Of a stretch of 64,000 nucleotides of DNA, positions 776-35,030 are shown one piece after another. The translations under genes were made by a program, and so were the position numbers. The notes beneath the pieces were generated by a model, which was not told the origin of the DNA, did not search any database, and was given only the letters and a program-made list of their open reading frames with translations. This DNA is from Cyanidioschyzon merolae (taxonomy: Eukaryota): NCBI GenBank assembly GCA_000091205.1, contig AP006485.2. One strand, written 5' to 3'. Within the stretch, counting starts at the first letter, position 1. Every line of letters begins with the position of its first letter.

Positions 776-1518
776 TTCCTATTGAAGTTTACTGTAGTTT
801 GCGATAGTGCTTGCTATCCCCTTTGTGGGTAATTTTTTTGCATTCTCTTCGTCGCGCACCTGTTAATGACTTATCCTGAAATTTGGCCGTCACATCACAC
901 CACGTGCTTCTCGCCGATCAAGAGAAACCTGCTAATGACCTCTTCTGGAGCGACTGTTTTATCCATCGCGGCCACTTTTATTTTGCGATCGGGTCGTAGC
1001 AAAATATAGTTTTGGCTTCAATGGCGTTTCAATCTTCAAGTAAATGTTCTCAGCTGATTTTCGCTGCTCAAAGTAGAGGTCTTCAATGAGTTTTTCTCCT
1101 AAAAAATTAGACTAATGTAATTGGGGGAGTGGGTTTGGGGTGGCCGGTATTGTGTATTTCAGAATGAAACGTGACTTAGTGCCGATCGAAGAGGATCAGG
1201 AAAAAAAGAAGATGCAACATGGGGAGGTCTTACATTGAAGGCTTCAATAGTGACGTCTGTACGACGAGATGGTGGTGGAATCCTATCTTTTCCTACATAT
1301 CAATGATCCTTACCACTCAATGTTGCGAGACGTTATCAGAAACAGTGTCGGTTCGTACGCCATGTATATTTTTAACTTTTCTTGAAGACTGCGGCGTTTG
1401 GAGAGCGAGCTGCATCGGGACGTGACGCACACCGCGAAGGTGATGTTTCCGGAAGATTTTTCACAATAGACTTACATCAACCACCTGATTGTTTTTAATG
1501 GGAAAACATCGGGGATAA

Positions 1519-1893
1519 ATGAGCGAGTGCATGCCTTCCTCAAAAATTACGCCAAATACCTCGTCAGCGATGCTGAACGAGGGGGTGACGCCGACATTTT
1601 TCGAATACAGGGCAATGAGGTGCCTTACGAAAGTGAGGAACCATAAGATCGTAAACCTCGATTGTTTCATGAAACGCGTCGTCTTTGCGCTGTACCCGGG
1701 CCCGTTTCGCAAAGGGATGCTGGCAATCATCGATTGCAAGAAGAGCGATCGCCAGCATGAACAGGAGATCAGAATCGTCGACAAGAGGACATCAAACAGG
1801 AGAAAGAATCTTGCTTTCGTTATCCGCGCCACTATTCTAAAACATCGTTCGGTCTTGGGTCATGTCATCCCAAGTGAAAACTGTCAGATATGA
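1519..1893 (+). pseudogene. ORF-A companion protein remnant (copy C)
   Basis: 'FMKRVVFALYPGPFRKGMLAIIDCKKSDRQHEQEIRIVDK' aligns with ORF-A of copy B ('FMIRAVFALYPGISRKGIWAMINGVTNDRKYEDEIEFVDK'). An upstream in-frame stop breaks the N-terminal part. The TGA stop overlaps the next ATG (ATGA at 1890). Confidence 0.55.
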
Positions 1894-3306
1894 TCAAAGA
1901 AGACGAAGAGAGAATTTACTCCCTCATCTTGCCACACCTCATTTTTTCGGACAGAGAACACGCACGCAAGGCCGACATGGAGCAGAGTGCAGAAAAAATG
2001 ACGGGTGGGAGTACCGACATTGAAGGCCTTCTCCAGATGCGATTCATTGTGGTTCAGTTATGCGAGTTCAATTCATATTCTGTGAATATCGACTCTAGAG
2101 TCCTTTACGCCTTCACGAAATAGATCGGTCCAGAGCTCGATGTAAACTACAAAGAGATCACCGGCGAAGACCGGGACACCCTGGTAGAATATCTTCGATT
2201 TCAAGCGTCCCAAACCGGCCAAAGAAAGGTACTCACGGGGGCCATCGATTACGATGTGGTATACATAAACCTACACTCTCAGGGGTTGAAGGCACGTCGT
2301 CCTATCCCGTCTTCGTTATCTCACTTGCCGAAGCGCGTACACAAGAAGACGGGCGATGGAACGTATAATGCCCACGAAATCGTCTTTCTCTGCGGCCTTA
2401 ACCCCTTGAATACGAATATCATCAGCATCGCTGCTCCCAGGCGTGCGGAAGGTGGTACTGACGGCAACATGCCTCAGAAAGACCTGTTTTTGTTGGTGTT
2501 CTCGAGAGCGAGATGGTATCGGGAATCCGGGAGATTGAGTGCGAGGATGGACATCGACCCGTGGAGTGCAACAGTTAAGGATAACCCGGAAACTTTGAGC
2601 GAGGTGACATGCCCAAGAGCGGACTCTCTAGTTTTTTGGATATTCAAAGAAGTTCGCGTTGCACACTGGGATGCGCTGTGCAAGGAATACTCAAAGCCAC
2701 GGTAGACTCGTTTGCAAATGAATCTACGCGGTGGGAGGCAGCATGCATTTGCGAATTTCTTCAATCAGTTGAGCGCCTTGAAGGAGAATGAACGTCAGTG
2801 GCTCGTATTAGCATACGGAGCATGGCGCTGGAAGACCCAAAAAGGGTGTACACCAGCTCCAACGACTAGGGTGTACAAGGGGTGCGCAAGGCGTTTCGTT
2901 ACGATACCTGTAGATGAGTTCCGAACATCGTATACACACCATGAACTGGGTTGTACACTTCAGAGAATGGAGATTGAAAAGTGCCAGTGGAGCCCTGAGG
3001 ATGTGAAAACTACGGACCGCTGACAGAAGAGCAAACGGAAAGGAAAGCGATAGTTCGAGGGCTACTTGCATAAGTACCACCAACGGCAAGAACCGGAAAG
3101 AGTTTTTGAACCGAGACTTTAACGCCGCTATCAATAAAAGTAGATGTGCGGTACTAGAGAAAAGTCCTCCAGAATGGACAAAAGAGAACTTTCTAAGAGA
3201 ACCTCTCAAAGTCGAACTATATGAGAAACAATTGGAAGCAGTAATAGGTGTCCGGTCCAAAAAGACTGGGAGGCGTCTGCACTTCAGTTGGAGACGTTTC
3301 GTCTAG
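1890..3306 (+). pseudogene. TnpB/Fanzor-like RuvC nuclease, frameshifted (copy C)
   Basis: Pieces 1890-2123, 2256-2705, 2712-3023 and 3106-3306 lie in three frames. They carry 'GLNPLNTNIISIAAPRRAEGGTDG' (RuvC-I), '[31 protein letters not shown]' (RuvC-II plus Zn finger) and 'MNRDFNAAINKSRCAVL' (RuvC-III). Confidence 0.65.
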
Positions 3307-4015
3307 GGCGGACCGGTCGCCGCTACTGCACTATGCCGACGTCGTTCCGCTTTAGAACGGCGTTTGGCTGTGGGTGCAACTTTTCGACGTCATGCTTTCC
3401 AGTGCAGAAGGAGTAAAATTGTGCCACTGTAATCCATTTCTGCTTCTCTGCCGTCTGCGCCAATTCTGGATCATGTATCACTGTGGATGATATTTTGCGT
3501 TTTGAGAAAGTGTGGTTTACTGCTAAGGTTCATCTCTTTCCATGAATCAGTTCCTGAATGCGTTTACGCCACAGCTCCAAGTGTCAAGCAACAGAGCTGA
3601 CCGCTAACATCCACGACTGCGGAAACGGTCTAGAGGAGTCGTTTGCGCCCTGGCACAATCAACCACATCTCCAAGCTTCAATGTACTTGACTCACGGATC
3701 GCGAATTCTCATGTGCCCTGCATGTGCTGCTATGATCATCAACCAATATATGCACAACCCAATCTTGTTCTCAGATTATTTTCTTCACCGGTTTTTTCGA
3801 ATGCGCTCATATATAGATCCGGCTTCGCATATTCAGGTGCAGGACTCATGCCGCCTCCGTGATCCACGTGCTTAGCAGTATGTTGTCGAAGGCTTTTACG
3901 CAGTGAACCATACATTATTACCATTGCTTTGATAAGAACCTCAGCAGGTAGGCCTCGCAGCTTATGTTGTATCCCATATGCTAGTTGCGCCTGTACTCTA
4001 CGTCAAACTGGATGC

Positions 4016-6433
4016 TCAGCAGGCAGCACCTATAACAATCACGCGAGCCTTCTCCAATATTTGCGCTGCACTTGCGTATATGCGGTAGAGCCTTTCCGCG
4101 TACGGCATGATAGACGCAGTACTGTCTGAACCGAGCGCTGAACCGCACATGGTGCGCAGCACATCTACCCGCGCAGGCCATAGCACAGCGTGGGCGACCT
4201 CTTGCGAGGCGTACGTGCCGTAGCAGCTTACGAGTAGACCATCAACCACGAGGCGTCCGGAACGCGTTAGTGGCGCATAGACTCCCTCACGCGTTACATA
4301 AGTGTCGATCGCGACGACAGGGTCCGCTCTATGGGCAGCGGCATCGAGAAGGGCGTCGCCTATGCGTATATGTTCTGCAAAAACTGCCTCGAGGGCGAGG
4401 CTCTCCAGCTCGGGCCTCTGATGTATTGTCTGCTGGTGACGTAAAAGATCTGAAAAAGGGGTCATCCCAAAATCCCGGACTCTCATGCTTGCGTGCATAC
4501 GGTACACTAAATGCTGACTCGTCAAGCGCAACTGCTTCCCTGATAACGTCTTAATAAGTAGGACCTCCGCGGTTGCGCCAGGCTCTTTGTGCAACCATCC
4601 AAGTATAGTATCCTCTAGCAGCTGTCCACTTCTATCGGCCCCAATCACACTCATACCCGAGCGCAACTCACTCATCGGCCGAATACTGCCCAGACGATCG
4701 ATCAGCACAGTGGCATCCTCCGGGAAGCAGATCGTGGTGCCGCCATTGATAGGAATTTTCGTGACATTCGCTGCTGTGGACGGTGTCGCTGAGAGTGATG
4801 GAGTCGCCGACGCAGTCGGTGTCGCTGTAGGCGTTGAGGTTGAGGTTGGTGTCGGCGTCGGTGTCGGCGTCGGTGTCGGCGTCGGTGTCGGCGTCGGTGT
4901 CGGGGAAGGGGTAATCATTGATTCGCTGAGCATGAATATATCATTGAGCTCTCCCTTTCCTTCACTTGTGTTCGAGTATCCGAATCCTCCGAACAGTATC
5001 ATGCCGCTTTCAGTTGTATTCCAGAGAGCAGATCCATACCGAGCACCGGGAACGACGCTGGGACTGAAAGTCCTAAACATTCCGTAATCAGCGGGGGCAT
5101 TAATGACTGCGCTACCATTGATCCAAGCCCACTGGCGCTGCTCCACGTTAAACAACCAAAGATCGTTCAGATCGCCGCTTTCGCTACTACTGTTCCCGTA
5201 CCCTTCACCACCAAAAAGCTGTAGATTTCCTGAAGCGTCAATGAAGCCAACTCCATACTCGCGGGATCCAGGATAGCTTGCAGCATCGGTATTGCCAAAT
5301 ATGATATACGATCCAGGGATCGAGATCGTGGTATTGCCTGCGACAAACGTCCATATGGACGTACTAATGTTATAAAACCAAAGATCATTCAAAAATCCTG
5401 GATAAGATTCCGAACCATTTCCATAACCAAACCCACCAAACATCCACAGATTGGCTTTTGAATCCGTCCATGTAATTGCACCCTGGCGAGCTCCGGGAGC
5501 ATTCGATCTATTGGCAATATCAGGTTCACTGTAATTGCCAGGCTGGTTTACCGATTGTGACCCACCCATATATGCCCACAGTGATAAGGATCTGTTGAAG
5601 CACCAAAGGTCTGAAAACAGGTACGAATAGCAATTCTCACCTCCAAACAACCAGAAGTTTCCATCTGCGCCCAGCCAGAACGCTGCCTTTAAGCGAGCCC
5701 CAGGGTTGTAAGAGGGATCGTAGGAACCCATTGGCCCGTACGTGGGTAAGGCATTGATTGTATCGTTGCCGTCTACCCAGGTCCAGTTTCCACTAACTGT
5801 GTCGTACTGCCACATGTCGTTAAGGCAACCGATATTACCATTTCCATCCAATCCGTAGCCTCCAAACAACCAGAAATGCTCCTCGTCTGCACGCCAGAAT
5901 GCACTGGCCTCCCTTGCGCCCGGAATATTGAGGGCGCTTCCGACTCCAAGTGTACCATAGTTTCCAGGCACATAAATGTCCATAGATCCGCCGATCCATG
6001 CCCACTCGAGCGAGGTAACGTTCAGTCTCCACAGATCGTTAAGATAACCTCCAGAGGAGTTCGCGTATCCAAAGCCACCAAAAAGGTACAAAACGCCGGG
6101 GCTTCCAACCCAGGTCGAGGAGTAGTGGCGACCGCCTGGGACGTTATTCGAGGACGCCACGTTCAGCGTACCATACTTCCCATAATTGTTGACACTAGTT
6201 TCTCCACCTATCCAGGTCCACCGCACGGGATAAGCCGGTGCCCCTGCGCCTACCAAAACCCAAATACGGGCCGAGAACCACAAACAAACGACCAAAACAC
6301 GCAGCCAGAGTACCCGCCTGAGACTACTCCGCCTCAAGCCTCCTTTCATAGGTGAATCTTGTCTTCGTACAGCTCGGGAAGCTCGCCCAAAAGCGTGTCC
6401 AAAGAAGGAAATCGCCGGCTTCAGAACACGCAA
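4016..6433 (-). CDS. Secreted Kelch-repeat / Thr-Pro linker / Hint-domain (Hedgehog-type 'Hog') protein; the true start is probably the Met of 'MKGGLRRSSLRRVLWLRVLVVCLWF' near 6349
   Basis: Single ORF of 805 aa with an N-terminal signal peptide, repeated 'WLFGG / LFGGFGY' kelch or galactose-oxidase-like blades and a (PT)n linker. The C-terminal Hint domain reads 'CFPEDATVLIDRLG...TSQHLVYRM...GVYAPLTRSGRLVVDGLLVSCYG'. Confidence 0.8.
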   Translation of the reverse strand: MRVLKPAISFFGHAFGRASRAVRRQDSPMKGGLRRSSLRRVLWLRVLVVCLWFSARIWVLVGAGAPAYPVRWTWIGGETSVNNYGKYGTLNVASSNNVPGGRHYSSTWVGSPGVLYLFGGFGYANSSGGYLNDLWRLNVTSLEWAWIGGSMDIYVPGNYGTLGVGSALNIPGAREASAFWRADEEHFWLFGGYGLDGNGNIGCLNDMWQYDTVSGNWTWVDGNDTINALPTYGPMGSYDPSYNPGARLKAAFWLGADGNFWLFGGENCYSYLFSDLWCFNRSLSLWAYMGGSQSVNQPGNYSEPDIANRSNAPGARQGAITWTDSKANLWMFGGFGYGNGSESYPGFLNDLWFYNISTSIWTFVAGNTTISIPGSYIIFGNTDAASYPGSREYGVGFIDASGNLQLFGGEGYGNSSSESGDLNDLWLFNVEQRQWAWINGSAVINAPADYGMFRTFSPSVVPGARYGSALWNTTESGMILFGGFGYSNTSEGKGELNDIFMLSESMITPSPTPTPTPTPTPTPTPTPTPTSTSTPTATPTASATPSLSATPSTAANVTKIPINGGTTICFPEDATVLIDRLGSIRPMSELRSGMSVIGADRSGQLLEDTILGWLHKEPGATAEVLLIKTLSGKQLRLTSQHLVYRMHASMRVRDFGMTPFSDLLRHQQTIHQRPELESLALEAVFAEHIRIGDALLDAAAHRADPVVAIDTYVTREGVYAPLTRSGRLVVDGLLVSCYGTYASQEVAHAVLWPARVDVLRTMCGSALGSDSTASIMPYAERLYRIYASAAQILEKARVIVIGAAC

Positions 6434-7249
6434 CGAACGATCGCAAGACTAGACGTTTTCAATGACTGCAGCCACGTGCGTTGCGCGCGCAACGTTGGAA
6501 ACGCACGTTGCGCAACGCATGCAGCCGGTTCTGATCTCGAGATGCATGCGAGCACTTGAACCTGAACTATGTGGACCAATATAGAATGTAATGGACATTT
6601 ATGCACATGGACCAATCATCCAAAAGTTTGTTTCGATCTGCTACTGGTGGGATCCTGTACTAAACGGTACACATGGGACACCAACCAAGATGCACTAAAG
6701 GCCTTGGACTTGAAATGGAACAATCATGTCCTATTATTGTGTAAAAACGAATACGATGCATCATAATGCCAAAGTTCGGTTCCAAAGAGTCGCAGCAGCA
6801 CGCCCCTTGGGGCAGCCTGCAGCTGCCCCGATGCGCGAGCGCAAATGCGCGCATTCCGGGCAGCGGCGGTGTTGGCAATACGAAACAGTGGCGACATTTG
6901 TGTAAAGAGCGTCGAGGCGCCATCGTGGCGTCGGACACGTGTGCTTCATCGATCTGAGTAGCGTCTCGCGCGGTGCGCGCATCGCGCTCGGTGAGCGTCC
7001 CTGGGAGGTCGGGTAGTCAACGGACGCGACGCACTTGTCGCCGTTGAAGGGAAATGTGATCCTCAGGATTCGTTGGCGTGTTGTTCTAACATAAAACTTG
7101 TATTTGTATTGCAATCGTAACAAAATATATGGTTTCATCTCAGTCATGTTGCAGCCCTCAAGTAAAAATACTGGAGTGTTTTTTTCGCAGTATACAACAG
7201 GAACCTTCAAAGAGGGTTCTTTCTCAAAAAAAAACTAAAAAGGAAAGCT

Positions 7250-8042
7250 ATGAAAAAGCAAGTCCACGATCCTGGAGGTCCAGGGTCGGCGGCTGCTAGA
7301 AAAAAAACAAAAGACGGTGCCGAGTTCATAAGAAAAGGAAGAGAAAAAGAAGCAAAAATGGGAGGCCCTACGTAGAAGGCGGCAAGAAAGACGACCGCAC
7401 TACGAGGTTGTGGTGAAAACCTGTCTTCTTGGACATATCAAGGATCCCTACATGGAAAAGTTGCGAGACATTATCGAAAAACGTGTCGGCTCGTACTCCA
7501 AGAGCATTGTCAATGCGTCGTCAGGACTAATGCATTTGGTGAGGGAGATGTACCACGAAGTTACGCACATGGAAACGGTCGAGGTACCCTGACGGGTTTT
7601 TCGATAAGACTTTACTCATCACCTGATGCTTGGTACAGAGGAAACGCGGAAGGAAAATGAGCTAGTAAATGCCTTCCGCGAGAAACATCCCTTTTACAGT
7701 TTCGAGGGTACTCGATACAAGGGTGAACGGGATATTTACACTTACGAAGCGATGAAGTATCTCACGAATCTGCAGAACCATTTGACAGCGGACCTCGAAC
7801 GTTTTATGATACGCGCCGTGTTTGCACTTTACCCGGGCATCTCTCGCAAGGGGATATGGGCGATTATCAATGGCATCACGAAAGATCGCAAGCGTGACAA
7901 TGAGGTCGAATTTGTCGACAAGAAGGCCTCACGCAGGAGCACAAATGAGGATTCCGTCATCCGTGCGGTTATACAAGCGCACCGGGCAATCTCGAGGCTG
8001 GCGAATCCAGCAGGCAAGATATCAGAGTTGAAAAAAAGATAA
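7250..8042 (+). pseudogene. ORF-A companion protein (copy A), frameshifted
   Basis: The conserved leader ATG at 7250 ('aaaggaaagctATGaaaaagcaagtccacgatcc') gives 'MKKQVHDPGGPGS...', a basic Lys-rich leader ending at TAG 7373. The body then lies in other frames (7410-7592, 7626-8042) with a +1 insertion relative to copy B. It retains 'YTYEAMKYLTNLQNHLTADLERFMIRAVFALYPGISRKGIWAIINGITKDRKRDNEVEFVDKK'. Confidence 0.55.
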
Positions 8043-8160
8043 AATGCTGTCGCCTCATTCTGCTCGATTTCGTATTTCTGGACCGAGAGCTCGAACGCAA
8101 AGCGGAGATGAAGCTGAGTGAGGAAAAAATGAAGAATGGGAGAGACGGAAGGCGTTCCTA

Positions 8161-9600
8161 ACGGGGAAGCGCTTCAACGGGGTTCCGTTGTGCAACATCA
8201 AGTCACATTTTGTGAGTACCGACTCCGGCGTCCTTTATGGCATCATGGTGGGGTTCAGTCCGGAGTTCAAAGTTAGCAGGGAGGACTTCACCGGCGAGAA
8301 CCGGGTGACGTACTGGAAGAGTATCTTCGATTTCAAACCTGTAAAAGTCAGCAAACAGAAGGTATTCACTGGGTTGATCGAAACCGATGGAGTAGCCTTG
8401 TGCGTACACTACCGGCGGTTGAAGAAAGATCGGCCAGTCCCTCCCTTGGCTGCGCCCGTGACGAAGGATGCAGAAAACAAAGAGGCGGATGCTGCGACGC
8501 ACAGAGTGCAGGATAACGACTTTATTGTTGACGCGGCGAAGGATGACGATGAAAAGGAGGCGGTTCCTGAGACGGAGGAGATGGAGGATGACGACTTTGC
8601 GGTTGGCGCGGTGAAGGATGAAGAAAAGAAGGAGGCGGTTCCTGCGATGCAGGAGGTGCAGGATAACGACCTTGTCATTGGCACGGTGAAGGATGAAGAA
8701 AAGAAGGAGGCGGATCTTGAGACGCAGAAAGTGCAGGATAACGACTTTGTCGTTGGCGCGGACCCTGGAAATACGAATATCATCACCATCGCAGCACCGA
8801 AGCGTGCTGAAGATGGCACTGACGGTAACTTACGTCAGAAAGACATGCGTCTTTTAAGATTCTCGAGAGCGAGATACTACCGGGAATCAGGAACCATGAA
8901 TGCAAGGAAGAGAATCGAAACATGGAATGCCGGAAGAAAGGATCTCCTGGAAGCCTTGAGCGAGGTGACTAACCGAGGAGCGGACTTTGAAGCTTTTCGG
9001 AAACTCATGAAAGTTCGCGTTGCTCATTGGGATGCGCTGTGGGAGAAGTATACCAAGCCTCGGTGGGCTCGTCTGCGTATGAATCTATACGGTGGGAAGC
9101 AGCGGGCGTTTGCCAACTTTTTCAATCAGTTGAGTGCCCTCAAATAGGACAAGACTCAAAGGCTCGTAGTAGCAAATGGGGCAGGGCGATGGAAGACCCA
9201 AAAAGGCTGTACACCAGCTCCAACGACGCGAACGTACAAAGAGTGCGCAAGGCGTTTCGTTACGATACCTGTAGATGAGTTCCGAACATCGTATACACAC
9301 CACGAGCTGGGTTGTACACTTCAGAGAGTGGAGATGGAAAAGTGCTAGAGGAGCCCTGAAGATATAGTAAAGTATGGACCTCTGACGGAGGAACAAACGA
9401 AAAGGATGCGAAAGTTCGGGGACTACTTGCATCAGCATGTACAACCAGTGATGGCAAGAAACGTATGGAGTTTGTGAACCGAGACTTTCATGCCGCTATC
9501 AATGTCAGGAGATGTGCGGTGCTGCAGACGAGAACTCCAGAGCTGACACGAGAGAACTTTGTTGGACAACCTCTCAAAGACGAACTATATGAGAAAAATG
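8161..9600 (+). pseudogene. TnpB/Fanzor-like RuvC nuclease (copy A), disrupted
   Basis: Homologous to 16784-18025. The start codon is ACG, there is an in-frame TAG at about 9143, and there are more stops downstream. An internal ~84-nt tandem expansion is listed separately below. Confidence 0.7.
8455..8750 (+). repeat. Roughly 84-nt in-frame tandem repeat (about 3.5 units) inside the copy A nuclease ORF
   Basis: The repeating protein unit is 'KDEEKKEA(V/D)...[12 protein letters not shown]', and copy B has a single unit. The array ends at the RuvC-I motif 'GADPGNTN'. Confidence 0.7.
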
Positions 9601-9730
9601 GGAAGCAGTAGTAGGCAGCCGGCCGAAAAAAAAAGCCGGGAGGCGTCTGCATGTCAGTTGGACACTTTTCATGTGGGCGCCGGTCGCACTGCAGTAAACG
9701 CCCGACGTCGTTCGAGTTAGAACGGCGTTT
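9600..9730 (+). ncRNA. Conserved non-coding 3' tail of family 1 element (candidate omega-RNA / right-end region)
   Basis: 'gggaggcgtctgca..tcagttgga.ac.ttt...gggcg.ccggtcgc..ctgca.ta.cgcccgacgtcgttc.gtt.agaacggcgttt' is conserved between copies A and C and, more diverged, copy B, while the flanks are unrelated. Confidence 0.35.
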
Positions 9731-10700
9731 TGGAGCAGTCTGCAGAGCATCTGGTACTTTTTGCTTTGCCTTTATCGATATATGGATAAGGCTGTGGTTA
9801 CGATTCTTCTAGTACGGTCTTCTGACAGCCCGGGTCATTTCACTGCCTATTTTTTTCCAGGCACACCTTTTCATCTGCAGTGCGTCGACCGAATAGCCGT
9901 GAGAAGTTTACCCTCTTGGCCCTATAACTTTCTGACTTCATGCTTTCCACAGCACGAGCGCTAGAATTGTGCGATTCTAAAGCACTTCTGTCTTTCTGCC
10001 GCCTGGTGCTATTCTTGATCGTATTTCACTCAGAACAGCCTTTTTGGTTTTTGGAGAAATTCTGTTTCAAAGGTTTATCTGATATCTTCGCAACTGTCAA
10101 CTCCGTAATGCTTTCACAATACTACTCCAAGTGACACGCAACGAGGAGAAGCACGAATTTTTGTATCTGAAAGTAGACTCCATCGGAACGCCCCGCAAAC
10201 CTCTAGCCAGCATACTATTTCGATGCATAGATGCATGCGAAGCTCTGCTCACTCAGTCTCATGTGACCGACATCTGCTGCTATTCCTCTTCGCAAGTCTT
10301 GGCGCTACCGTACTTCTCTGTATATAAAACTGTATTCCGCGGCTTGCCTCGATTGCGCACAATAATAACTGTATGCAACTTTGCTCGTTCGTATAAGTTG
10401 CTATGGTTGTGCCCCTTATCAAAATCCCTGACAAAACGCAGTGCGAACCTTTTTCGAAATGTAACTCGTATGATCATCATCGCTTGATCATTATCCTAAG
10501 ACAGAAAAAGCGGAACCTAGAGTAGTACCATCGGTGCTGTTCGCCCCCGTGCTTCAGAGCAGATTGCCAGTTCAGCAAGCTGCAACTACAACACTTACGT
10601 AAGCCTCCGTTAAAACACGTGCTGCACTCGTCCAGTTATGATATAGCCTTTCTGCGTACTGCATGATACCCATAATACCCTCTGTGCCGAGCCCTGGTCC

Positions 10701-12767
10701 CTATAACTTGCGCAGAGCATCGACCGGCGCAGGCCACAACGCAGCATATGCCACGGCATGCGATGCGGACATCCCGTAGCAGCTCACCAGAATACCGTCG
10801 ACGACAAGGCGCCCTGAGCGAGTCAATGGCGCATAGAGACCATTGTGCGTAACGAAAGTCTCGATTGCCACCAAGGGGTCTGGCAGGTGCGCCGCAACAT
10901 CCACTAGAGTGTCGCCAATGCGTATATCTTCCGCGAGATCTACCTCAATGGCAGAGGTACCCAGCTCAAGCCTCTGACGTATTTGCCTCTGCTGCTGTGG
11001 CTGATGCTTCCCTGAAAGAGAAGAAGCTGTGGTCGTAACACTGTAAAAGTCTCTAGAGTGTCCAAGCATCCGATATACGAGATGCTGCCTCGTCAAACAC
11101 AGCTGCTTTCCGGAGAGCGTCTTGATCACCAGAATCTCCGCAGTAGCGCCGGGCTCGTTATGCAACCATCCTAGTACACTATCATCGACCAGTTGCCCAC
11201 GTCCATTGACCCCGATCGCGGCCATACCTGATCGAAGCTCGCTTATCTGCAGACTGTTGCCCAGACCATCGATCAGTACCGAGGCATCCGCGGGGAAGCA
11301 GACCGCAGAGCCTTCGCCTACAGCGGTCTGCGTCACATTTGTCGTTGCCGCCGGTGCTGCAGTAACGGAGCGTGTCGGTGATGCCGTCGGAGTCGGTGTT
11401 GCGGTCGGCGTAGGCGTCGGTGTTGCGATGTATAATGTGAAGAGGTCGTTATAGATACCTGAGCTTCCTTGGCCTCCGAACAGGACCGGGTCGTTTTGAT
11501 CGGTATCCCAAAGAACTGCATCAGCTCGCGGAGGTGGAAGCGTTGTATTGCTTGTCTTGTTAAGCTCGCCGTAACTATAGGCTCCATCTGTTGTATTGTC
11601 ACCGTCTACCCACGCCCATTCGAGACTCGTAATATTGAACGTCCACAGGTCGTTGCAGAGACCAGGTGAATAACCACCGAAAAGATACAGGGTGTTTGTC
11701 GAGTCTACGAATCTAGAGGAACCAGCTCTGTACCCGGGACTGTTATACGATGAGAGCACTCTTTTGTCGCCGAAAACTGACTCATTCGAGCCAACGCTAC
11801 CATCTCCAGATATCCAGGCCCATGCTCTAGAGCTGATATTGAAGAGCCACAAATCATTCAGAAAGCTGCGAATTCCGATACTCAGTCCTAGACCACCAAA
11901 GAGCCAAAAGTTGCCAGCAAGGTCTTGCCATGATGCGGCTCCGGAACGTCCAGCGGGATAGTTGCTCGGTGATGTCTGCCGAAACGCACCATAACTTCCA
12001 GAGGCAATCTGCTATTCAGTCCCTTCAATCCATCCCCATTCGTTGGTCACTATGCTGCACTACCACTAGTCACCGTAATATGCACCATTAGGACTAGATC
12101 CACCAAAGAGATAAAACTGGCCAGCCAAACCAACCCAGGTGGCGGGTAAGAAACGAGTGCCGGGCGTATTGTTCGAAGACGACTTCCCAAGAGTGCCATA
12201 TGTAGGGGAAATAATGGTCTTGTCGAAGCCCTGCACCCATGTCCACTCGCTCGACGATACATTATACATCCACATATCACAATACCCCGAGTTCAAATTC
12301 CGGCCTCCATATAACCAAAGGTTTCCGTAGCTGTCGCTCCATGCAGCGAGTTGCCTCCTCGAGGGCGGAGCGTTGCTCTCTTTGGGAACTCCGAGGAAAC
12401 CTTATACCCCTGCAAGGTTGGGGGATACAGAGCCTCCAACCCAGGTCCAAGTCTACGCGCTCAGATTGTAGTACCAGAGATTATCAACGACGCCACTCGG
12501 GACGCGACCACCAACCAACCAGAGCACTACGTCAACGCCGGTCCAGGAAGCCGCACCGTGCTGCGCCGGAGGCACGTTGCTGCTGTTTGGTACACCCTGA
12601 ACATCGTAGCTAACCGCGCTACCGGTAGAGTTACTAATGCCGATCCAGGTCCATAAAAAAGTATTCACGGCCGAAAAATCCCCTTGAACTGTGTGCATAT
12701 AAGACACAACCAAGATTACAACTAGGTGTCTCACTGCAGAAAAATCTCGTATTCGGATTTGAAACAT
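10701..12767 (-). pseudogene. Second Kelch-(TP)n-Hint 'Hog' paralog, interrupted by in-frame stops and frame breaks
   Basis: The signal-peptide start is 'MFQIRIRDFSAVRHLVVILVV' (12767) and kelch blades 'FYLFGGSSPNGAYYGD' and 'FWLFGGLGLS' follow. Two adjacent in-frame TAGs ('ggtgacTAGtggTAGtgc', about 12077-12085) and one more interrupt the frame, and 12296-12453 is frame-discontinuous. The intact 3' part 10701-11852 carries the TP linker and Hint domain 'CFPADASVLIDGLG...GLYAPLTRSGRLVVDGILVSCYG'. Confidence 0.6.
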
Positions 12768-13334: not shown

Positions 13335-15206
13335 TTACACTGTGGAGAAGGCGCTCGCAGACGTCGACACAGAAGCTGAAACTGAAGCACTCGCGGATAC
13401 ACTCACAGAAGCTGTCGCAGAGGCCGTCGCAGAGACTGTTGCAGACACCGTCGCAGAGGGTGTCGCTGTCACAGCCACGGGACTCGGAGTCGGTGTTGGA
13501 CTAATGACCACACATTGGTTGTTGATGCACTCCTCGTCAGCGCGGCAGCAACGAACCTTGTTCACAAGGTTATCCGAAGGGATCAGGTACGTCCCGCACT
13601 GCTTCGTAGGGTCCTTGCACACACAGAACGACGGCAGCAGCACCTGTTGTTGCTGCTGTTGTTGCAATTGCTGCTGCTGCTGCTGGTTGTTGTTGTTGCT
13701 GAACGGGTTGTACGTGCAGTTCTGCGTCTCGGCGTTGCAGCACTCCGGGCCACACGGAATATAGCTCGAGTTCGATACGTTGCCGGTCGTGCCGCTCAGC
13801 GAGTTCGACACATACCCGTAGGTCTGGCACACGTACTCGGTCATCGGCTGGAAGCACTCGTTGCTGAGCCCCAGGCAGCAACCAGCCTCCAGACACTGCT
13901 GCGGCGAGTAGCTCGTGCGCTGCGTCCCGTGCTGCTCCCCGTACAGAAGCGTGTTCAGCAGACGCACAAACTGGTTATTGTTGATGTTATTGTTCAGCTG
14001 CTGGTTCTGATTCACCGCGTTCGTGCACGGCTGGCGCTCAAACTCGCCCACCGCGCACGTCTTCACGGGCTGGAAGCAGTACGGGTTCGACTCAAAGTCG
14101 CTCTGCTGCTTGCCGTTCTGCACCCACTGGTTCTGCGCCTGCGAGTCGTAGCAGCAGCCCTGGGCATAGCACGTAAACTGGTTGATGCCCGCGTTGCCGC
14201 ACGGCTGGCGCTGCGCTCCCGGTGACGGGCAGAGGGGAACCGGTGCCTGCACCTCCTGCAGCGCTACAGAGGCCTGCGGTGCATGGTTGATGTCGTAGTA
14301 GCACCAGGGTGCCAGGATGCCGTTCGCTGTGGGCTGCCAGCAGCATCCCGGTATCGCAGTGCACTCGTCGGGGTAGATATAGCTCCAGCCGCAGGGGACG
14401 CGCTGTGTCACTGGAACAGCGCTGCAGGCCGCTGAGACGCTCTTCAGGGTGCACGCGTTCGTCTGGGCGTTGAAGCAGCATCCGACTTGCTCGCAAGCGT
14501 CCTGGTTTGTGTACTGGCCCGGAGAACCGCAGATTTCACTCGTGCAAACTGGTGTTGGCGTTGCACTCGGTGTCGGGGTTATAATAGCAAGTGTCGCACC
14601 AGAGGGTAGAATTGTAGAAAGCAGGTCGGTGAAAGTTTGAAGCACAATTTGCAGTTCACTGGCGAGGGATGTGTCTCCTGAGATCTTAATCACATAGGTC
14701 ACAACACTGCCGCCCGAAGTGCGCACCAATGCTCGTTCCAGACGAGGATTGCTCTTGTCTAATGTGGTGGCGAGGCGCCTTGATGTACCCGAACCGAAGA
14801 CCGTGTCGCAGTTATCAGTCACGCTAACATTCACTTCCAGGCCTATGAAGCGAGCCTCGAGATCGTTCTGCAAATCCGTCGCCACGGCCAAACAAAGAGA
14901 AAGATTCTGAACGGATATCGCAATCGAGGTGGAAATCGTCGTCGGCACGATTGTTGGTGACGTTGTTGTAGTCGGTGTCATCGTAGGCGTCGGCGTCGGT
15001 GTCATCGTCGGCGTCGGTGTCATCGTCGCTGACACCGATGGAGCCACCGAACTTGTTGGTGACAATGTTGCAGTCGCTGTCATTGTCGATTGTGCTTCGG
15101 CCCCTAGCGTGGCACACCCAACAGCAAGCGACAGAGCTGCGACCAAGACGAACAACTGTTTACACAGTTCGCCGAAGTTGCGATATTTTCCTGCTCCTGG
15201 TCTCAT
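13335..15206 (-). CDS. Secreted multi-trefoil (P-domain) glycoprotein with TP/ST-rich, poly-Q and poly-N regions
   Basis: There is a signal peptide 'MRPGAGKYRNFGELCKQLFVLVAALSLAVGC' (ATG at 15206). Trefoil signatures include 'RVPCGWSYIYPDECTAIPGCCWQPTANGILAPWCYY' and 'RQPCGNAGINQFTCYAQGCCYDS...NPYCFQ', with two more degenerate units and (TP)n/(ST)n linkers. Confidence 0.7.
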   Translation of the reverse strand: MRPGAGKYRNFGELCKQLFVLVAALSLAVGCATLGAEAQSTMTATATLSPTSSVAPSVSATMTPTPTMTPTPTPTMTPTTTTSPTIVPTTISTSIAISVQNLSLCLAVATDLQNDLEARFIGLEVNVSVTDNCDTVFGSGTSRRLATTLDKSNPRLERALVRTSGGSVVTYVIKISGDTSLASELQIVLQTFTDLLSTILPSGATLAIITPTPSATPTPVCTSEICGSPGQYTNQDACEQVGCCFNAQTNACTLKSVSAACSAVPVTQRVPCGWSYIYPDECTAIPGCCWQPTANGILAPWCYYDINHAPQASVALQEVQAPVPLCPSPGAQRQPCGNAGINQFTCYAQGCCYDSQAQNQWVQNGKQQSDFESNPYCFQPVKTCAVGEFERQPCTNAVNQNQQLNNNINNNQFVRLLNTLLYGEQHGTQRTSYSPQQCLEAGCCLGLSNECFQPMTEYVCQTYGYVSNSLSGTTGNVSNSSYIPCGPECCNAETQNCTYNPFSNNNNQQQQQQLQQQQQQQVLLPSFCVCKDPTKQCGTYLIPSDNLVNKVRCCRADEECINNQCVVISPTPTPSPVAVTATPSATVSATVSATASATASVSVSASASVSASVSTSASAFSTV

Positions 15207-15877
15207 GCTTCTAGAGCTAAGAACTTCTTGTCGACACTAGGTTTTTGTGAATACTTATTTCTTACAGCTGCACCGGTTGCTGAGATGTTTTGTCGCACCG
15301 CGAGTTTCGCTATCTCTCTGGCTACGAAACAGCCCAGTCGGCTACCGAGCGCTGTGTGAAGAACACCAACGCAGCGGCGATAGCGCCTGTGAAAAAATTT
15401 AAAACGCGCAACATGCCTCGAAGCCGCGGCAATCGATGATCACGGCGAAGGAGAAACGGTTCGAGACGATCCCTGCAGGCGCGGTTTCGATTTCGCGTTT
15501 CGCGCCAAAAGCGATTGCGCAGACGTGTCCCCGAGCGAGCTCTGGTTTGCTTCATTATCGGCGTGGGGCACGTGTCCTTCATCGATCGGCGTAGTGTCCC
15601 GCGAGGCGCACGCATCGCGGTCAGTGAGCGCACCTCGGAGATCGAGCAGTCAACTGACGCGACGCGCATGGCTCCGTTGAAGGGAAACGCGGTTGGGATC
15701 AATAGCATGTTGTTCTACCGGAAAAAGTTGGATTTCCGTTCAGGTCGTAGCCAAGTACAGTCTTTCAGTTCGTTTCTGTTTGAAACTTCAAACAAGTCTA
15801 GTCAAGTGTTTTTCGTGGTTTATAGTAGACGCGTTCGTACCGCGTTCGTTCGCAAAAAAAACAAAAAAAGGAAAGCT

Positions 15878-16545
15878 ATGGAAAAGCAAGTCCACGATCC
15901 TGGAGGCCCAGGGTCGCCGGCTGCCAGAAAAAATACAAAAAACAGTGCCGAGTCCAGAAGAAAAGGAAGAGAAAAAGAGGCAAAAGGGGGAGGCCCTACG
16001 TTGAAGGCGGCAAGAAAGACGACTGTACGACGAGAAGGTGGTGAAACCCTTTCTTCTTGGACATATCCGTATGGGAAAAGTTGCGAGACGCTATCAAAAA
16101 ACGTGTCGACTCGTACTCCATGAGTATTGTCAAGACGTCGTCAGCACTGATGCATTTGGTGAGGGAGATGTATCGCGACGTGACGCACATGGAAACGGTC
16201 GAGACTCCGGACGGGTTTTTCGATAAGACATTTATTCGTCACCTGATGCTTGGCACAGGGGAAGCGCGGAGGGAAATTGAGCTAATGCATGCCCTCCACG
16301 AAAACTTCGCAGAATTCCGCTTCGAGGGTACCCCATTCAGGGGTGACCCGGATATTTACACATATGGGGCGATGAAGTACCTCACGAACCTGAAGAACCA
16401 TTTGACAATGAACCTCGAACTTTTCATGATACGCGCCGTGTTTGCACTCTACCCAGGCATCTCTCGGAAAGGAATATGGGCGATGATCAACGGCGTCACG
16501 AACGATCGAAAGTATGAAGATGAGATCGAATTTGTCGACAAGTAG
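15878..16545 (+). CDS. ORF-A companion protein of family 1 element (copy B); leader and body are in different frames and the C-terminus is truncated by a TAG
   Basis: Leader ATG at 15878 gives 'MEKQVHDPGGPGSPAARKNTKNSAESRRKGREKEAKGGG...' in frame 2 up to 16123. The main conserved frame 16057-16545 reads 'EKLRDAIKKRVDSYSMSIVKTSSALMHLVREMYRDVTHMETVE...YTYGAMKYLTNLKNHLTMNLELFMIRAVFALYPGISRKGIWAMINGVTNDRKYEDEIEFVDK*'. Copy A has AAG where copy B has the TAG stop. Confidence 0.55.
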
Positions 16546-16783
16546 GTGCCAAACGAGAGCACGAATGAAGCCTCTGTAATCCGTGCGGTTATACGAGAGC
16601 ACCGTGCAGTCTTGGGGCTGGCGAATCCAACAGACAATATCAGAGTTGAAAAAAGATAAGGAAAGATACTATCGCCTCGTCCTGCGGTATTTTGTGTTTC
16701 TGGACCGAGAGCTCGAACGCGAAGCGGAGATGAAGCTGAGTGAAGAGACAAATGATGAGTAGGAGATACGGACGGCTTTCCTA

Positions 16784-18025
16784 ATGGGTAAGCGCTTTAA
16801 CGTGGTTCCAATGTCCAATATCAAGTCACATTTTGTGACCATCGACTCCGCGGTCTTTTACGGCATCATGAAAGAGATCAGTCTGGAGTTCAGTGTCAGC
16901 AGGGAGGACTTCACCGGCGAAAACCGGGAGACGTACTGGAAGAGTATCTTCGATTTCAAACGCCTCAGAGTAAGCAAACAAAGGGTATTTACTGGGTTGA
17001 TCGAAACCGATGGAGTATCCTTGTGTATAGACTATCGGCGGTTGAAGAAAGATCGTCCAGTTCCGCCCTCGGCTGCGCCCGTGCCGAAGCATGAAGATGA
17101 GAAGGAGGCGGATCTTGAGACGCAGAAAGTGCAGGATAACGACTTTGTCGTTGGCGCGGACCCTGGAAATACGAATATCATCACCATCGCAGCACCGAAG
17201 CGTGCTGAAGATGGCACTGACGGTAACTTACGTCAGAAAGACATGCGTCTTTTAAGATTCTCGAGAGCGAGATACTACCGGGAATCAGGAACCATGAATG
17301 CAAGGAAGAGAATCGAAACAGGGAATGCCGGAAGAAAGGATCTCCTGGAAGCCTTGAGCGAGGTGACTAACCGAGGAGCGGACTTTGAAGCTTTTCGGAA
17401 ACTCATGAAAGTTCGCGTTGCTCATTGGGATGCGCTGTGGGAGAAGTATACCAAGCCTCGGTGGGCTCGTCTGCGTATGAATCTATACGGTGGGAAGCAG
17501 CGTGCGTTCGTCAACTTTTTCAATCAGTTGAGCGCCCTCAAGGAGAATGAAAATCAGAGGCTCGTAGTAGCAAATGGGGCAGGGCAATGGAAGACCCAAA
17601 AAGGATGTACACCAGCTCCAACGACGCGAACGTACAAAGAGTGCGCAAGGCGTTTCGTTACGATACCTGTAGATGAGTTCCGAACATCTTATACACACCA
17701 CGAGCTGGGGTGCACACTTCAGAGAGTGGAGATGGAAAAGTGCCAGAGGAGCCCTGAGGAAACAGCAAAGTACGGACCGCTGACGGACGAGCAAATGGAA
17801 AGGAGGGCGCAAGTGCGGGGATTGCTTGCATTAGTACGTACAATCAATGGCAAGAAACATATGGAGCTTGTGAACAGAGACTTTACCGCCGCCATCAATA
17901 TAAGGAAATGTGCGGTGCTGGAGGAAAGACCTCCAGAGTCGACACGAGAGAACTTTGTTGGACAACCTCTCAAAGTCGAACTATATGAAACAAAGTTGGA
18001 AGCAGTAGTACATGGCCCGCCGTGA
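16784..18025 (+). CDS. TnpB/Fanzor-family RNA-guided-type RuvC nuclease (413 aa, intact ORF)
   Basis: ATG at 16784. Motifs are RuvC-I '[21 protein letters not shown]', RuvC-II '[31 protein letters not shown]' (the E, then H/H/C/C residues in place of a C4 Zn finger) and RuvC-III '[20 protein letters not shown]'. The size and motif order match TnpB/Fanzor2-like proteins. Confidence 0.8.
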
Positions 18026-18125
18026 AATGCTAGGAGACGTACGCACATCGTCGAAAACGCTTCGTCCAGGGCGCGTCACTCGCTACTTCTGTACAACGCT
18101 GGCGTCGCTCGACTCTAGGTTTGCA
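18026..18125 (+). ncRNA. Family 1 3' tail (copy B), candidate omega-RNA region
   Basis: 'gctaggagacgtacgca...gggcgcgtcactcgctacttctgtacaacgctggcgtcgctcgactctag' aligns with the tails of copies A and C. Confidence 0.3.
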
Positions 18126-18424
18126 GTGCGCAACTGTGGTAAACGTTCTTGCGGGTTGCCTCTAGCTAGTGAAGACTTGAAATGTCAGGCCCAAGTCTTT
18201 ACAAGCTTGTAGCAAGACGCTTCTTGAGCAAGAGCACTGCGGGTTCTTCCACTGGGGCTGCAGACAGGCCGTTCTACGGCGGCCTGCGCGGGTTCCTGGA
18301 GCGGCTGAGGCGGGGCCGCATCTTCCGGGCCGACCTCGAACCGGAAAACTGGAGAGAGCCTTGGCGAGAGTCGCGTTTTCGTTATCCTTCTCCGGGGTAA
18401 GTTAGAATATGGTGCACTGAAGTG

Positions 18425-21878: not shown

Positions 21879-22067
21879 AGCTCAACACTGGACCGCTCTC
21901 GTTGCACGACCGGTCCCTGAAACAAGGCGTTCTCTGCCACAAGTTGATAAAAAGCCTTGCCCTAGGCGCCTCAAAAAGCTTTTACGGACCGCAGACTAGG
22001 TAGCGACGCAGCGCCTGTGATCCACAATCGATCGCACTGTTGCGCTTTTCTTTACCGTTAGACAAAT

Positions 22068-22570
22068 CGATTCCATAGACCAGGGATTCCATAGACCAGG
22101 GATTCCATAGACCAGGGATTCCATAGACCAGGGATTCCATAGACCAGGGATTCCATAGACCAGGGATTCCATAGACCAGGGATTCCATAGACCAGGGATT
22201 CCATAGACCAGGGATTCCATAGACCAGGGATTCCATAGACCAGGGATTCCATAGACCAGGGATTCCATAGACCAGGGATTCCATAGACCAGGGATTCCAT
22301 AGACCAGGGATTCCATAGACCAGGGATTCCATAGACCAGGGATTCCATAGACCAGGGATTCCATAGACCAGGGATTCCATAGACCAGGGATTCCATAGAC
22401 CAGGGATTCCATAGACCAGGGATTCCATAGACCAGGGATTCCATAGACCAGGGATTCCATAGACCAGGGATTCCATAGACCAGGGATTCCATAGACCAGG
22501 GATTCCATAGACCAGGGATTCCATAGACCAGGGATTCCATAGACCAGGGATTCCATAGACCAGGGATTCC
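22068..22570. repeat. Perfect 16-bp tandem repeat (ccatagaccagggatt)n, about 31 copies
   Basis: Seen directly. The 16-nt period keeps all three frames open, which explains the overlapping 'GIPGLWNPWSMESLVY' ORFs on the minus strand. Confidence 0.95.
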
Positions 22571-22589
22571 AAATTGCGGGACAGATAGT

Positions 22590-23150
22590 GGCATTCGGGA
22601 TGGCGTTCATCAAGTTGCACTGTACGTCCAAGTTCCATGAACGATACGTCCTCTCGGATGTACTGGTCGTTTCATGTATTCCATCGTCCTCCGAATGCCT
22701 ACCCAGAGCACCCGCCATAGCACCCACACCGCCGGTGCGGATACCGCACAGAGAGAGAACGGCGTTGCCGTACCACCGGGAGCGTCGGCTCGACGCATCA
22801 TTCATTCAACAGGGAATTCGGGACCCTTTATTATTCTGGGAGCTGGCAAACTGTGCAGGACTACCTACTACCGGCTGCAGCGCGAAGCGATGTACTAGGA
22901 GACCACCACGCCCAGAGCGATGCCCAGACGCCGCCCAACCGCTCCTAGCCCCAGAATATACTGTGTTGTGGGCGAGCTTTTCAGGTCTCATGACAGCATC
23001 CGGCACTGCGGAGTCGGACGGAGCACAAAACCGACAGAATCGTCCGGCTCGCGAGACCTCCCGCCTAAAAGGTACACGTTCGATTACGCGGGAACCGTTT
23101 CCACATATCAACGCTTACCTTGCAGAAGAAAAGAAGCGGTTACCTAGGTG
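22590..23150 (+). repeat. Non-coding dispersed repeat, family 3 copy
   Basis: Collinear with 34500-35030 ('cctctcggatgtactggtcgtttc', 'gagcacccgcc', 'acggcgttgccgtaccaccgggagcgtcggctcgacgc', 'ttattctgggagctg', 'cgtccggctcgcgagacctcccgcctaaaaggta'). Confidence 0.65.
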
Positions 23151-32145: not shown

Positions 32146-32569
32146 CGGCAGTCACCTGGTGATGCAGCACAAGCACTGCTGCTGAACCTGGGAAGCACTC
32201 TGTGGATGAGTTCTTCACGCGCGCACGCGCGCCCATAGTCTTTCAACTCAGTTGCATGATACCCGTAGGTGCGTAGAATAGAATGCTTTTTCGTGGTTTG
32301 TAGCAGCTGCCTTCGAATGCGTTCAATTCCAAAAATAGAAAATAGAAGGAAAACGTATGAATTTGGGAGTTGGGCATCCTAGAGGGCCGTCGCGGCCAGG
32401 TTCTACGAAGAAACGAAAGAATCCTCTTCTCACCGGCTATCGAGCGATGAGGACGAAGATAAAGAAGGCGGGAGATAGGAGTGAGAAAAGGAGTTTGCCC
32501 GACGAGACGATGTGGAGACACTGGTGACTCTGAGGGCACGAGTTCTAGGAATCCTTGCTATGGTGCATT

Positions 32570-32800
32570 CAACCAGTATCAGTGCACGCATGGAGTTCGT
32601 GAACCGAGACTTTAAAGCCGCCATCAATATCAGACGATATGTAGTGCTGTAGACGAGACCCGTGGAGCTGAAGCGATCCAACTTTGTGGGGAAGCCTCTC
32701 CGGCTCGCAGTGCGCGCGGAAAAGCTGAAGCCGATAGCAGGCGGCAGGTCACAAAAGGCTGAGAGGCGTCTGTGGCTGGATGCATGTATATACATACGCT
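32570..32800 (+). mobile_element. Family 1 (Fanzor-type) 3' fragment: RuvC-III end plus tail
   Basis: 'MEFVNRDFKAAINIRRYVVL*' is followed by '...ggctgagaggcgtctg', which matches the 3' ends of copies A, B and C. Confidence 0.6.
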
Positions 32801-34090: not shown

Positions 34091-34499
34091 CCGGAGGTTA
34101 GAGAGCTGTGAACGAAGCAAGCACAGAAATGCCCACGTATATGCCGCTGAACAAGAAAATGCATCGAAGACCAATCGTTTCAGTCTTCTCCGGACTTGGG
34201 CCTGCCCATATGTCCCTTTTGATGCTAACGTGCGCATCGTGTGCCGATACCCGTACAGAGCGCTTCACACGTCACAAATTCCGCACCTGCACGCTGCATA
34301 GAGCATCCTGGCGTGCTTCACTTGGACAGTACTTGTACGAATCTGGAGCAAACCAGTCATCTGTGGAGGTGCTGCCTACGCTTCAGAACACACACGCCAC
34401 AGCCTTGCACAAACGTTTCAGCACGGGCGTTTTGTCCAATCGATTTTTTTCGATGCGAAAACCTTTACGTTGACCATAGATTCCAGATTGCGTGATAGA

Positions 34500-35030
34500 T
34501 AATGGATTTCGGGAAAGCGTCCATATTGAAGCACCTACCTTCAGGTTCCGTTACCCATACTTCCTCTCGGATATACTGGTCGTCTCGCACGTTCTGTCGT
34601 GCGACGACTGCCTGCCGTGAGCACCCGCCGTTGCGCTTCTATACACCGCTGAAGCAGATGTTGCACGGATACAGAACGGCATTGCCATTCCACTGAGGGC
34701 GTCGGCTCGAGGCGTAATTCATCCGACACGACGTCGGAGTACAGAATTATTCTGGGAGCCTGCGACAGCGCAAACCGATCTACCAGGCGTCCACTGCAAC
34801 CAGGGCGACGCCAAGACGCAGCATACGCGCTCCTAGTCCCAGAATGAATTGCGTTGCAGACGATCCGCTCAGTTTTCAGTACAGCACCTGCCACTTGGGG
34901 GAGCAGGAAGCACTAGCCAGCCCCGCAGACTCGTCCGGCTCGCGGGACCTTCCGCCTAGAAGGTAAGCTTTCGAAAATACGGAAACTTTTCCCCTTTTCA
35001 ACGCTTCCTATCAAGGTCAAACAGCACTGT
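34500..35030 (+). repeat. Non-coding dispersed repeat, family 3 copy
   Basis: See 22590-23150; same orientation. Confidence 0.65.

Follow-up and report, generated by a model that had tools for sequence, protein, structure and literature searches.

The closest described relatives of the elements discussed here are the Fanzor1 (Fz1) nucleases. The omega-RNAs (ωRNAs) of Fz1 systems contain a conserved first stem-loop (SL1) and a variable and dispensable second stem-loop (SL2), followed by the guide; in three structures of Fz1 complexes the conserved first stem-loop has seven pairs (Xu et al., 2024; PMC11423790). Fanzor1 genes occur in several transposon superfamilies, in which the 3′ part carrying Fanzor is constant and the 5′ parts attached to it differ (Bao and Jurka, 2013; PMC3627910). 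Here we describe a family of Fanzor1 elements represented in 64,000 nucleotides of DNA from Cyanidioschyzon merolae (contig AP006485.2), a stretch that is called the window below. With a GC content of ~53% and long, sparse open reading frames (ORFs), the window reads as eukaryotic. BLAST comparisons revealed three plus-strand copies of one repeat, A, B and C, and a fragment, D. The interval 16784-18125, with which this work is mainly concerned, comprises a 413-aa ORF of copy B and the tail that follows it.

The original prediction held that a conserved region behind the nuclease stop codon is the right end of a TnpB- or Fanzor-type element and encodes the scaffold of its guide RNA. The core of that idea has been kept: the protein is homologous to Fanzor1, the tail is linked to the ORF, it ends sharply, and two stem-loops are predicted within it. 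The argument from conservation on which it was based proved wrong, since about half of the presumed tail is coding, and the tail of copy B, the copy that had been flagged, has decayed. The element is a Fanzor1 mobile element of ~2.6 kb with the tail as its right end. This right end is probably also the template of an ωRNA scaffold, with the adjoining flanking DNA as the guide. Systems of this type are already known, and the present one is a further Fanzor1 family.

The 413-aa ORF by itself had no match in PDB or Pfam. It has 192 close protein relatives, and a profile search of 1.8 billion representatives gave 1,498 relatives, many of them 600-750 aa long; the longest open frames in relatives encode 778 aa (L057) and 772 aa (L006). 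A profile of 26 homologues matched SpuFz1 (8GKH) with E=4.4e-10, over profile positions 255-612, and GtFz1 (9CER) with E=7.8e-4. The database label of the family is DUF8286. The ORF of copy B keeps the RuvC motifs DPGNTN, DEFRTS and NRDF, in the order D … E(-x-x-[TS][TS]) … RD, and these align with the catalytic motifs IDPNKRD, LDEYKTS and NRDM of SpuFz1. By these sequence comparisons, the protein is a Fanzor1 homologue. Two relatives match the Cas12f1-like TNB domain weakly, below threshold. An AlphaFold2 model from the shallow family alignment had a mean predicted local distance difference test (pLDDT) score of 36 and was unusable.

A metagenome scan found 350 stretches encoding the protein, of which 80 loci, designated by L and a number, were analyzed. 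When loci at least 97% identical, flanks included, were collapsed, 50 distinct copies remained, two being the A and B loci of the window; comparisons among copies refer to these 50 unless otherwise indicated. The related loci come from a handful of Joint Genome Institute (JGI) hot-spring samples; Ga0078972 has been described as a Yellowstone metagenome (PMC8986864). An exact search of the contig collection with the window ORF gave no match. Across the copies the frequency of the majority base is 0.67-0.92 up to the equivalent of ~3368-3376 and becomes random within a few bases. The 400 nt downstream show no mutual similarity, except in the duplicated A/C pair of the window. The sharp end of conservation and the unrelated flanks thus identify the tail as the true right end of a mobile unit present at many different sites. 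As had been predicted, conservation of the tail far exceeds that of the flanking DNA.

A covariance model of the tail, built from the relatives, found it essentially only behind Fanzor ORFs, with one solo tail (L026:1046-1124) in 520 kb. In the window it scored 67 bits for copy C (E=2e-14), 38 bits for copy B (E=5e-7) and 32 bits for copy A (E=2e-5), and it had no further match there. A search of the whole window with Rfam gave nothing at gathering scores, only a chance snoRNA match near copy C (E=3.4), and no tRNA gene was found. The solo right end of L026 (1027-1128), also seen in L028, is ~100 nt long, runs from TCGTCAGTTGGAGACG to GGCGGTG, scores 60 bits and has no Fanzor coding sequence before it; in L026 it sits ~650 nt upstream of another full copy. 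A 16-mer match to the linker in the viral contig L083 was not accompanied by a match to the covariance model and was dismissed as chance.

The original prediction took ~130 nt right after the stop codon to be non-coding. Their first ~60 nt are coding, and only ~70 nt are non-coding. The consensus ORF of the family extends to ...GRRLHVSWRRFV*; in copy C and in the homologues P0003/P0004 the frame is open through GGGAGGCGTCTGCA..TCAGTTGG to ...RRFV*, 65 aa past NRDF, and in copy C it ends with …GRRLHFSWRRFV* at a TAG codon (3304-3306). This is the modal stop, found in 11 of the 36 copies in which the frame can be followed, and codon periodicity lasts to the consensus stop and then vanishes. The ORF reaches ~20 codons into what had been called the tail, and its C-terminus, GRSKKxGRRLHVSWRRFV*, is basic. 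Secondary changes account for the stops in A and B, a frameshift in the former and an early TGA in the latter. Eight distinct copies (L043, L004, L062, L019, L025, L058, L033 and L047) stop at one and the same codon (…RPPE*), 22 aa past NRDF, where other copies have W or L. This shared stop represents either a recurrent TGG>TGA/TAG change or the multiplication of a truncated sub-lineage.

After the TAG, the consensus reads GGGCG, a variable 5-9 nt, CGCCACTACTGTACAC, a long hairpin and …GGTG. Folding of single sequences predicts the same two hairpins in nearly all copies. The predicted SL1 is GC-rich, 6-9 bp long and conserved in sequence, and its base takes in the stop codon. It is followed by a conserved linker predicted to be single-stranded, and by a predicted SL2 of up to ~19-25 bp, the 3′ arm of which ends at the boundary of the element. 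SL2 exists in at least three sequence versions, CGTCGTTCGA-CTT-TCGAACGGCG, AACGTTTTTC-TTTT-GAAAGACGTT and CCGGCGAGCACGCGC-TCGT-GCGCGTGCTCGCCGG, and the hairpin is kept in all of them, with a perfect 15-bp stem in L025. The best-preserved tail of the window is that of copy C. Here the last in-frame coding segment (…IGVRSKKTGRRLHFSWRRFV*) occupies 3243-3306 and ends with the consensus stop, the predicted SL1 lies over the stop codon at 3304-3325 (TAGGGCGG…CGCCGCTA), the linker block lies at 3318-3333 (CGCCGCTACTGCACTA in copy C; pairwise identity of the block ~0.84), and SL2 extends from 3329 to 3376, its 3′ arm running to the end of the element (…GGGTG), with unrelated DNA beyond.

Folding the tail had been proposed as a check on the idea of a scaffold, and the predicted stem-loops are stable and recurrent. 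Segments of 135-141 nt from L076, L014, L021 and window copies C and A fold with z-scores of -3.2 to -5.3. The tail of copy B has z=+1.9, worse than 198 of 200 shuffled sequences, which indicates that it has decayed. Conservation of the tail is patchy in a structured manner, at ~0.8-0.9 for stem bases and the linker and 0.3-0.6 for the SL1 loop and the inner parts of the stems and of SL2. In an alignment-free test, the arms of SL2 were exchanged between copies; native arms gave -20.8 and swapped arms -19.2 kcal/mol, and none of 500 permutations reached the native value (variant 1). The sense strand folds with a ΔG of -21.6, compared to -16.7 for the reverse complement (p=1e-8), and against dinucleotide shuffles the z-scores are -1.67 for sense and -0.83 for the complement (p=6.5e-5). 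G·U cells number 85 and A·C cells 25. Two further signs of a scaffold were sought in the coding region and rejected. In a long-range helix between coding GTAGTAGGTGGC and linker GCCACTACTG, the variants do not compensate; and extra constraint on synonymous sites is not seen in the last ~27 codons, where third-position identity (~0.73) equals the average of the ORF.

By analogy with SpuFz1, PpFz1 and GtFz1, the right-end region would give rise to a sense RNA, probably the 3′ portion of the Fanzor transcript, and this RNA would fold into an ωRNA scaffold to which the nuclease would bind. The 14-20 nt of host DNA past the boundary would then serve as the guide, so that the enzyme would cut sites that lack the element. 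The use of a target-adjacent motif (TAM) is assumed on the same analogy.

Several results weigh against this interpretation. The tail had been thought to be conserved despite divergence of the coding region, and the reverse is the case. In pairs of window copies, tail identity is 68% for A-C, 58% for A-B and 58% for B-C, compared to 76-82% in the preceding 245 coding nt. Mean pairwise identity among the 50 copies is 0.85, 0.89 and 0.74 for codon positions 1, 2 and 3, and 0.66 for the non-coding tail, which is below the value for third positions, so that conservation alone is no proof of selection. Similarity between the tails of A and C is in itself uninformative on constraint, since these copies share a segmental duplication with homologous downstream flanks. 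Covariation, which had been proposed as a check, was not found on a fixed alignment: for 20 tails of variant 1, the share of cells that pair is 76.9%, compared to 77.0% with shuffled partners, with no excess of double changes. Controls with slid partners pair at only 36-54%, a result that favors the structure. RNAalifold found no consensus structure in a MAFFT alignment of the 50 tails, or in one of 41 canonical tails, because the indels and register shifts of SL2 are misaligned. The arm-swap test was not significant for SL2 variant 2 (125/500) or for SL1 (104/1000). The copies are related and the tests are not independent, so that the p-values overstate independence. Hairpins that tolerate G·T pairs on one strand would equally suit a signal for single-stranded DNA transposition. 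In the protein, the classical C4 zinc finger, which in the motif of Bao and Jurka lies between [TS][TS] and RD, is absent; in its place there is only H-H-x3-C-x10-C, with no CxxC…CxxC, and the consensus of distant relatives also lacks C4. Finally, neither a left end nor a TAM candidate could be defined, the left boundary being fuzzy and the independent junctions few.

The tail could instead be a transposon end at the level of DNA only, with its hairpin or hairpins recognized as DNA by a trans-acting transposase and with no role in guiding. This is the main rival explanation, but we regard it as unlikely. The enzyme would be the neighboring DDE_3 transposase of the Tc1/mariner type, or one specific for single strands as in IS200/IS605 or Helitron2. 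A DNA end would account for the sharp boundary and unique flanks, for the subterminal hairpin at the extreme 3′ end and for a palindrome, GGACACGTGTCC, 6 nt inside one class of left ends, and single-stranded DNA hairpins, too, tolerate strand-biased G·T pairs. It would also fit the presence of a DDE_3 gene directly upstream, on the same strand, in L084 (541-1449), L086 (65-963) and L087 (315-1208), which are remote relatives (~40% identity) from brine and other metagenomes. Remnants of DDE_3 genes were found with tblastn upstream of the Fanzor gene in L066 (1158-1974), L079 (1140-2021) and the second element of L012 (6348-7046), which have a left boundary of their own in common. Window copies A, B and C lack the transposase, as do most loci. 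What speaks against a DNA end alone is that searches for inverted repeats between left and right ends gave nothing beyond chance in any copy, that no duplication of TA or another target site was seen around those copies in which both junctions are unique, and that the termini, GG… and …GGTG, are not those of Helitrons (5′-TC…CTRR-3′). Two long contigs, moreover, have only ordinary host genes within 10 kb, and neither a Y1 nor a RepHel gene. The explanation is in any case compatible with a guide-RNA template, since in characterized OMEGA and Fanzor systems the right end is both the end of the transposon and the template of the ωRNA.

On the left, the core common to all copies begins near position 15612 of copy B. 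Upstream of it there are at least five unrelated classes of sequence, each common to a few copies. The class to which window copies A and B belong begins at 15560 with GGCGTCGGACACGTGTCC. Only one of the 5′ modules carries the DDE_3 transposase, and the unit of Fanzor ORF and structured right end is found at no fewer than 50 unrelated sites, usually without a transposase. The picture suggested by the sequences is of a constant 3′ module, ORF and structured right end, joined to differing 5′ modules. The 3′ module might even spread by itself, being copied into new contexts after RNA-guided cutting, instead of depending on a classical transposase for passive transport, but we think this improbable. 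A TAM was sought in the left flanks; motifs resembling CAAT, CCAT or CATT occur 4-7 nt upstream in a few copies only, and were set aside because the independent junctions are too few.

Other features of the left side may be recorded. The 12-nt palindrome mentioned above is found at B 15566-15577 and A 6933-6944, in L004, L027 and others. In this class of left ends, the first 8 nt (GGCGTCGG) show similarity to the 3′ arm of SL2 (GGCGTTGG) and complementarity to the 5′ arm. In L064, L058, L030, L040 and L046 a fragment in direct orientation, GTCAATGGAAACGTCTTGTTAATG, like the tail segment GTCAGTTGGAGACGTCTTGTCTAGGG, lies ~30-60 nt before the start of the core. The window also contains, at ~22558-23135 and ~34440-35005, a second repeat, which is ~525-600 nt long, has ~70% identity and is found as well in L064 (1191-1815), L014 (1268-1797) and many other loci. 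In many of these it lies 75-100 nt upstream of the Fanzor core, in either orientation, and in the window it also occurs alone. It has no long ORF and no match in Rfam or among tRNAs. The idea that it is a decayed transposase or a "ghost" element was rejected, as it has no similarity to DDE_3 and no match to the tail model.

A further explanation is that the tail has no present function, its similarity among copies stemming from a recent master element, and that the hairpins are inherited or are features of a 3′ untranslated region that do no guiding. The low identity of the tail relative to third codon positions and, within the window, to the ORF would be expected in that case, as would the failure to detect covariation in the fixed alignment, the fact that most copies are pseudogenes and the decay of the tail in copy B. 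It would not be expected that stem bases and linker are so much better conserved than loops and inner stems, that SL2 has been rebuilt at least three times with its pairing kept, that native arms pair better than swapped ones, that G·U pairs exceed A·C mismatches more than threefold, or that the association of ORF and tail persists where the 5′ modules differ. We consider absence of function quite improbable. It is very unlikely that hairpins and T-run (GGCGTTTTG) are a signal at the 3′ end of the Fanzor mRNA, serving as terminator, processing site or stability element: although the structure is specific to the sense strand, lies immediately past the stop codon and in many copies comprises a hairpin and then 2-4 T residues, the T-run is short and variable and does not follow the long stem but lies within its 3′ arm, a bacterial-type intrinsic terminator is not expected in a eukaryotic host, and the coincidence of the element boundary with the end of the stem would be left unexplained.

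Against this background, we retain the ωRNA template as the preferred reading of the tail and turn to the window copies, all three of which are dead: A and C are pseudogenes, and in B the ORF is truncated and the tail does not fold any more. The limits of copy B (plus strand, 15560-18130) were taken from a BLAST comparison of 14000-18300 with the 80 related loci and the window, viewed for left boundaries; similarity begins at 15560 or 15612 and ends at ~18118-18133. Its residual ORF (16784-18025) represents the C-terminal ~55% of a Fanzor1 protein of ~750-780 aa, and N-terminal homology, interrupted by stops and frameshifts, is found in 15560-16783. The early TGA at 18023-18025 costs the last ~26 codons. 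Read against the consensus, the former C-terminal coding part (...ARRRTHIVENASS) lies past this premature stop at 18026-18069, with CAG at 18067-18069 in place of the consensus TAG. The decayed non-coding right end (18067-18130) contains a remnant of SL1, the linker CGCTACTTCTGTACAA at 18081-18096, with 3 mismatches to the consensus linker, and a disrupted SL2. The diverged but alignable tail that had been noted in copy B is thus present, at 18040-18130, and the string quoted for copies A and C was located at positions 9640-9733 in A and 3268-3376 in C.

Copies A and C, also on the plus strand, extend over 6927-9733 and 1178-3376, and their ORFs have many stops and frameshifts. In copy A the tail lies at 9640-9733 (z=-4.6) with SL2 at ~9699-9733, and the position of the consensus stop has mutated to GTG (9673-9675); copy C has the lowest z-score, -5.3. 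Both lie in a tandem segmental duplication of ~6.5 kb (1178-4438 and 7336-10997), the flanks of which are 66-70% identical. The duplication also doubles a minus-strand gene with Kelch repeats and a Hint module (ORFs 4016-6433 and 10701-11852). Fragment D (plus strand, 32321-32775) is an internally deleted, 3′-truncated remnant with no tail. Its positions 32532-32700 match the C-terminal coding region of Fanzor, and similarity ends after GAGAGGCGTCTG (32763-32774). The claim that a solo fragment at 32750 has the same start as the tails is borne out for GAGAGGCGTCTG only, which D (32532-32775) has in common with them; it is divergent afterwards and has no match to the covariance model. The left part of D (32321-32576) matches L012 7089-7351, just past the transposase of the transposase-bearing subtype, from which it follows that D is an internally deleted remnant of that subtype rather than of the A/B/C type.

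Some additional observations concern rearrangement of the copies. Just before the first RuvC motif, the Fanzor ORF contains a 75-nt tandem repeat, encoding 25 acidic and lysine-rich aa, in numbers that vary from 4 in A (8462-8761) to 1 in B (17085-17159) and 1-4 in the loci. Identity between copies A and B is 93% for the 3′ half of the ORF (8688-9613 and 17086-18010), but only ~81% for the 5′ half and ~58% for the tail; the drop at ~18010/9613 suggests gene conversion between the copies. In L044 (Ga0209012_1006482) the left flank and 5′ half of copy B (96%) are fused to the 3′ half and right flank of copy A (98.6%). This locus matches window 15419-17086 and 8688-12591, with the switch at the 75-nt repeat, and the join is either an assembly chimera or a genuine A/B recombinant. 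At ~21996-22640, the window contains a long tandem array of a 48-nt unit that encodes ESLVYGIPGLWNPWSM repeats in all three frames of the minus strand.

If the preferred reading is correct, a further Fanzor1 family, bearing only the Pfam label DUF8286, would have a compact ωRNA of two stems and would come from a eukaryote of the Yellowstone hot springs. It would be of possible interest for heat-tolerant, compact genome editors. The known workings of Fanzor systems are not changed. The system is of interest chiefly because the Fanzor1 family is new and apparently thermophile-associated, and because its 5′ ends are modular. The contrast between a constant module of ORF and right end and swapped 5′ modules bears on the movement of Fanzor genes between transposon families.

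Comparison with known systems may begin with ISDra2 TnpB and the IS200/IS605 elements. There, as proposed here, the RNA is templated by the 3′ end of the nuclease gene together with the right end of the transposon, and the guide is the adjoining flank. Both have a subterminal hairpin, and neither has terminal inverted repeats or a target duplication. In contrast, the host here is eukaryotic, the protein belongs to the Fanzor1 clade and there is no Y1 TnpA gene; the bacterial scaffold also overlaps the ORF far more. In GtFz1 of Guillardia theta, the scaffold likewise abuts or overlaps the ORF at its 3′ end, taking in the last 17 codons, as the putative SL1 here includes the stop codon, and a possible further stem (GGCGTCT…AGACGTC) lies within the last 13 codons here. 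GtFz1 differs in its four stem-loops and much longer RNA, homology to its protein is weaker (E=7.8e-4), and extra synonymous-site constraint is not seen here in the last 27 codons.

The closest resemblance in the protein is to SpuFz1 of Spizellomyces punctatus, with E=4.4e-10 for 8GKH; the comparison with it and with PpFz1 of Parasitella parasitica (Saito et al., 2023; PMC10432273; Xu et al., 2024; PMC11423790) shows single-ORF elements of 2-2.6 kb and many degraded genomic copies in each case. Their ωRNAs have two stem-loops, the second of them variable, in the same order and of the same size as those predicted here in the ~70 nt after the stop, and a variable flank lies right after the last stem, which in SpuFz1 is the site of the guide. 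Terminal inverted repeats of 30-33 nt and a TA duplication, which those elements have, were not detected in ours. The predicted SL2 stem here is much longer (~19-25 bp) and the predicted SL1 overlaps the stop codon; the protein is longer (~750-780 aa), has an internal 25-aa tandem repeat and is without the C4 zinc finger. Compared with the Fanzor1 genes of Tc1/mariner-type elements (Bao and Jurka, 2013; PMC3627910), window copies A, B and C lack a transposase, and neither terminal inverted repeats nor TA duplications were found, whereas L084, L086, L087 and three copies of the family have a DDE_3 gene upstream on the same strand as in those elements. The pattern that Bao and Jurka described, a constant 3′ module with differing 5′ modules, is seen here too.

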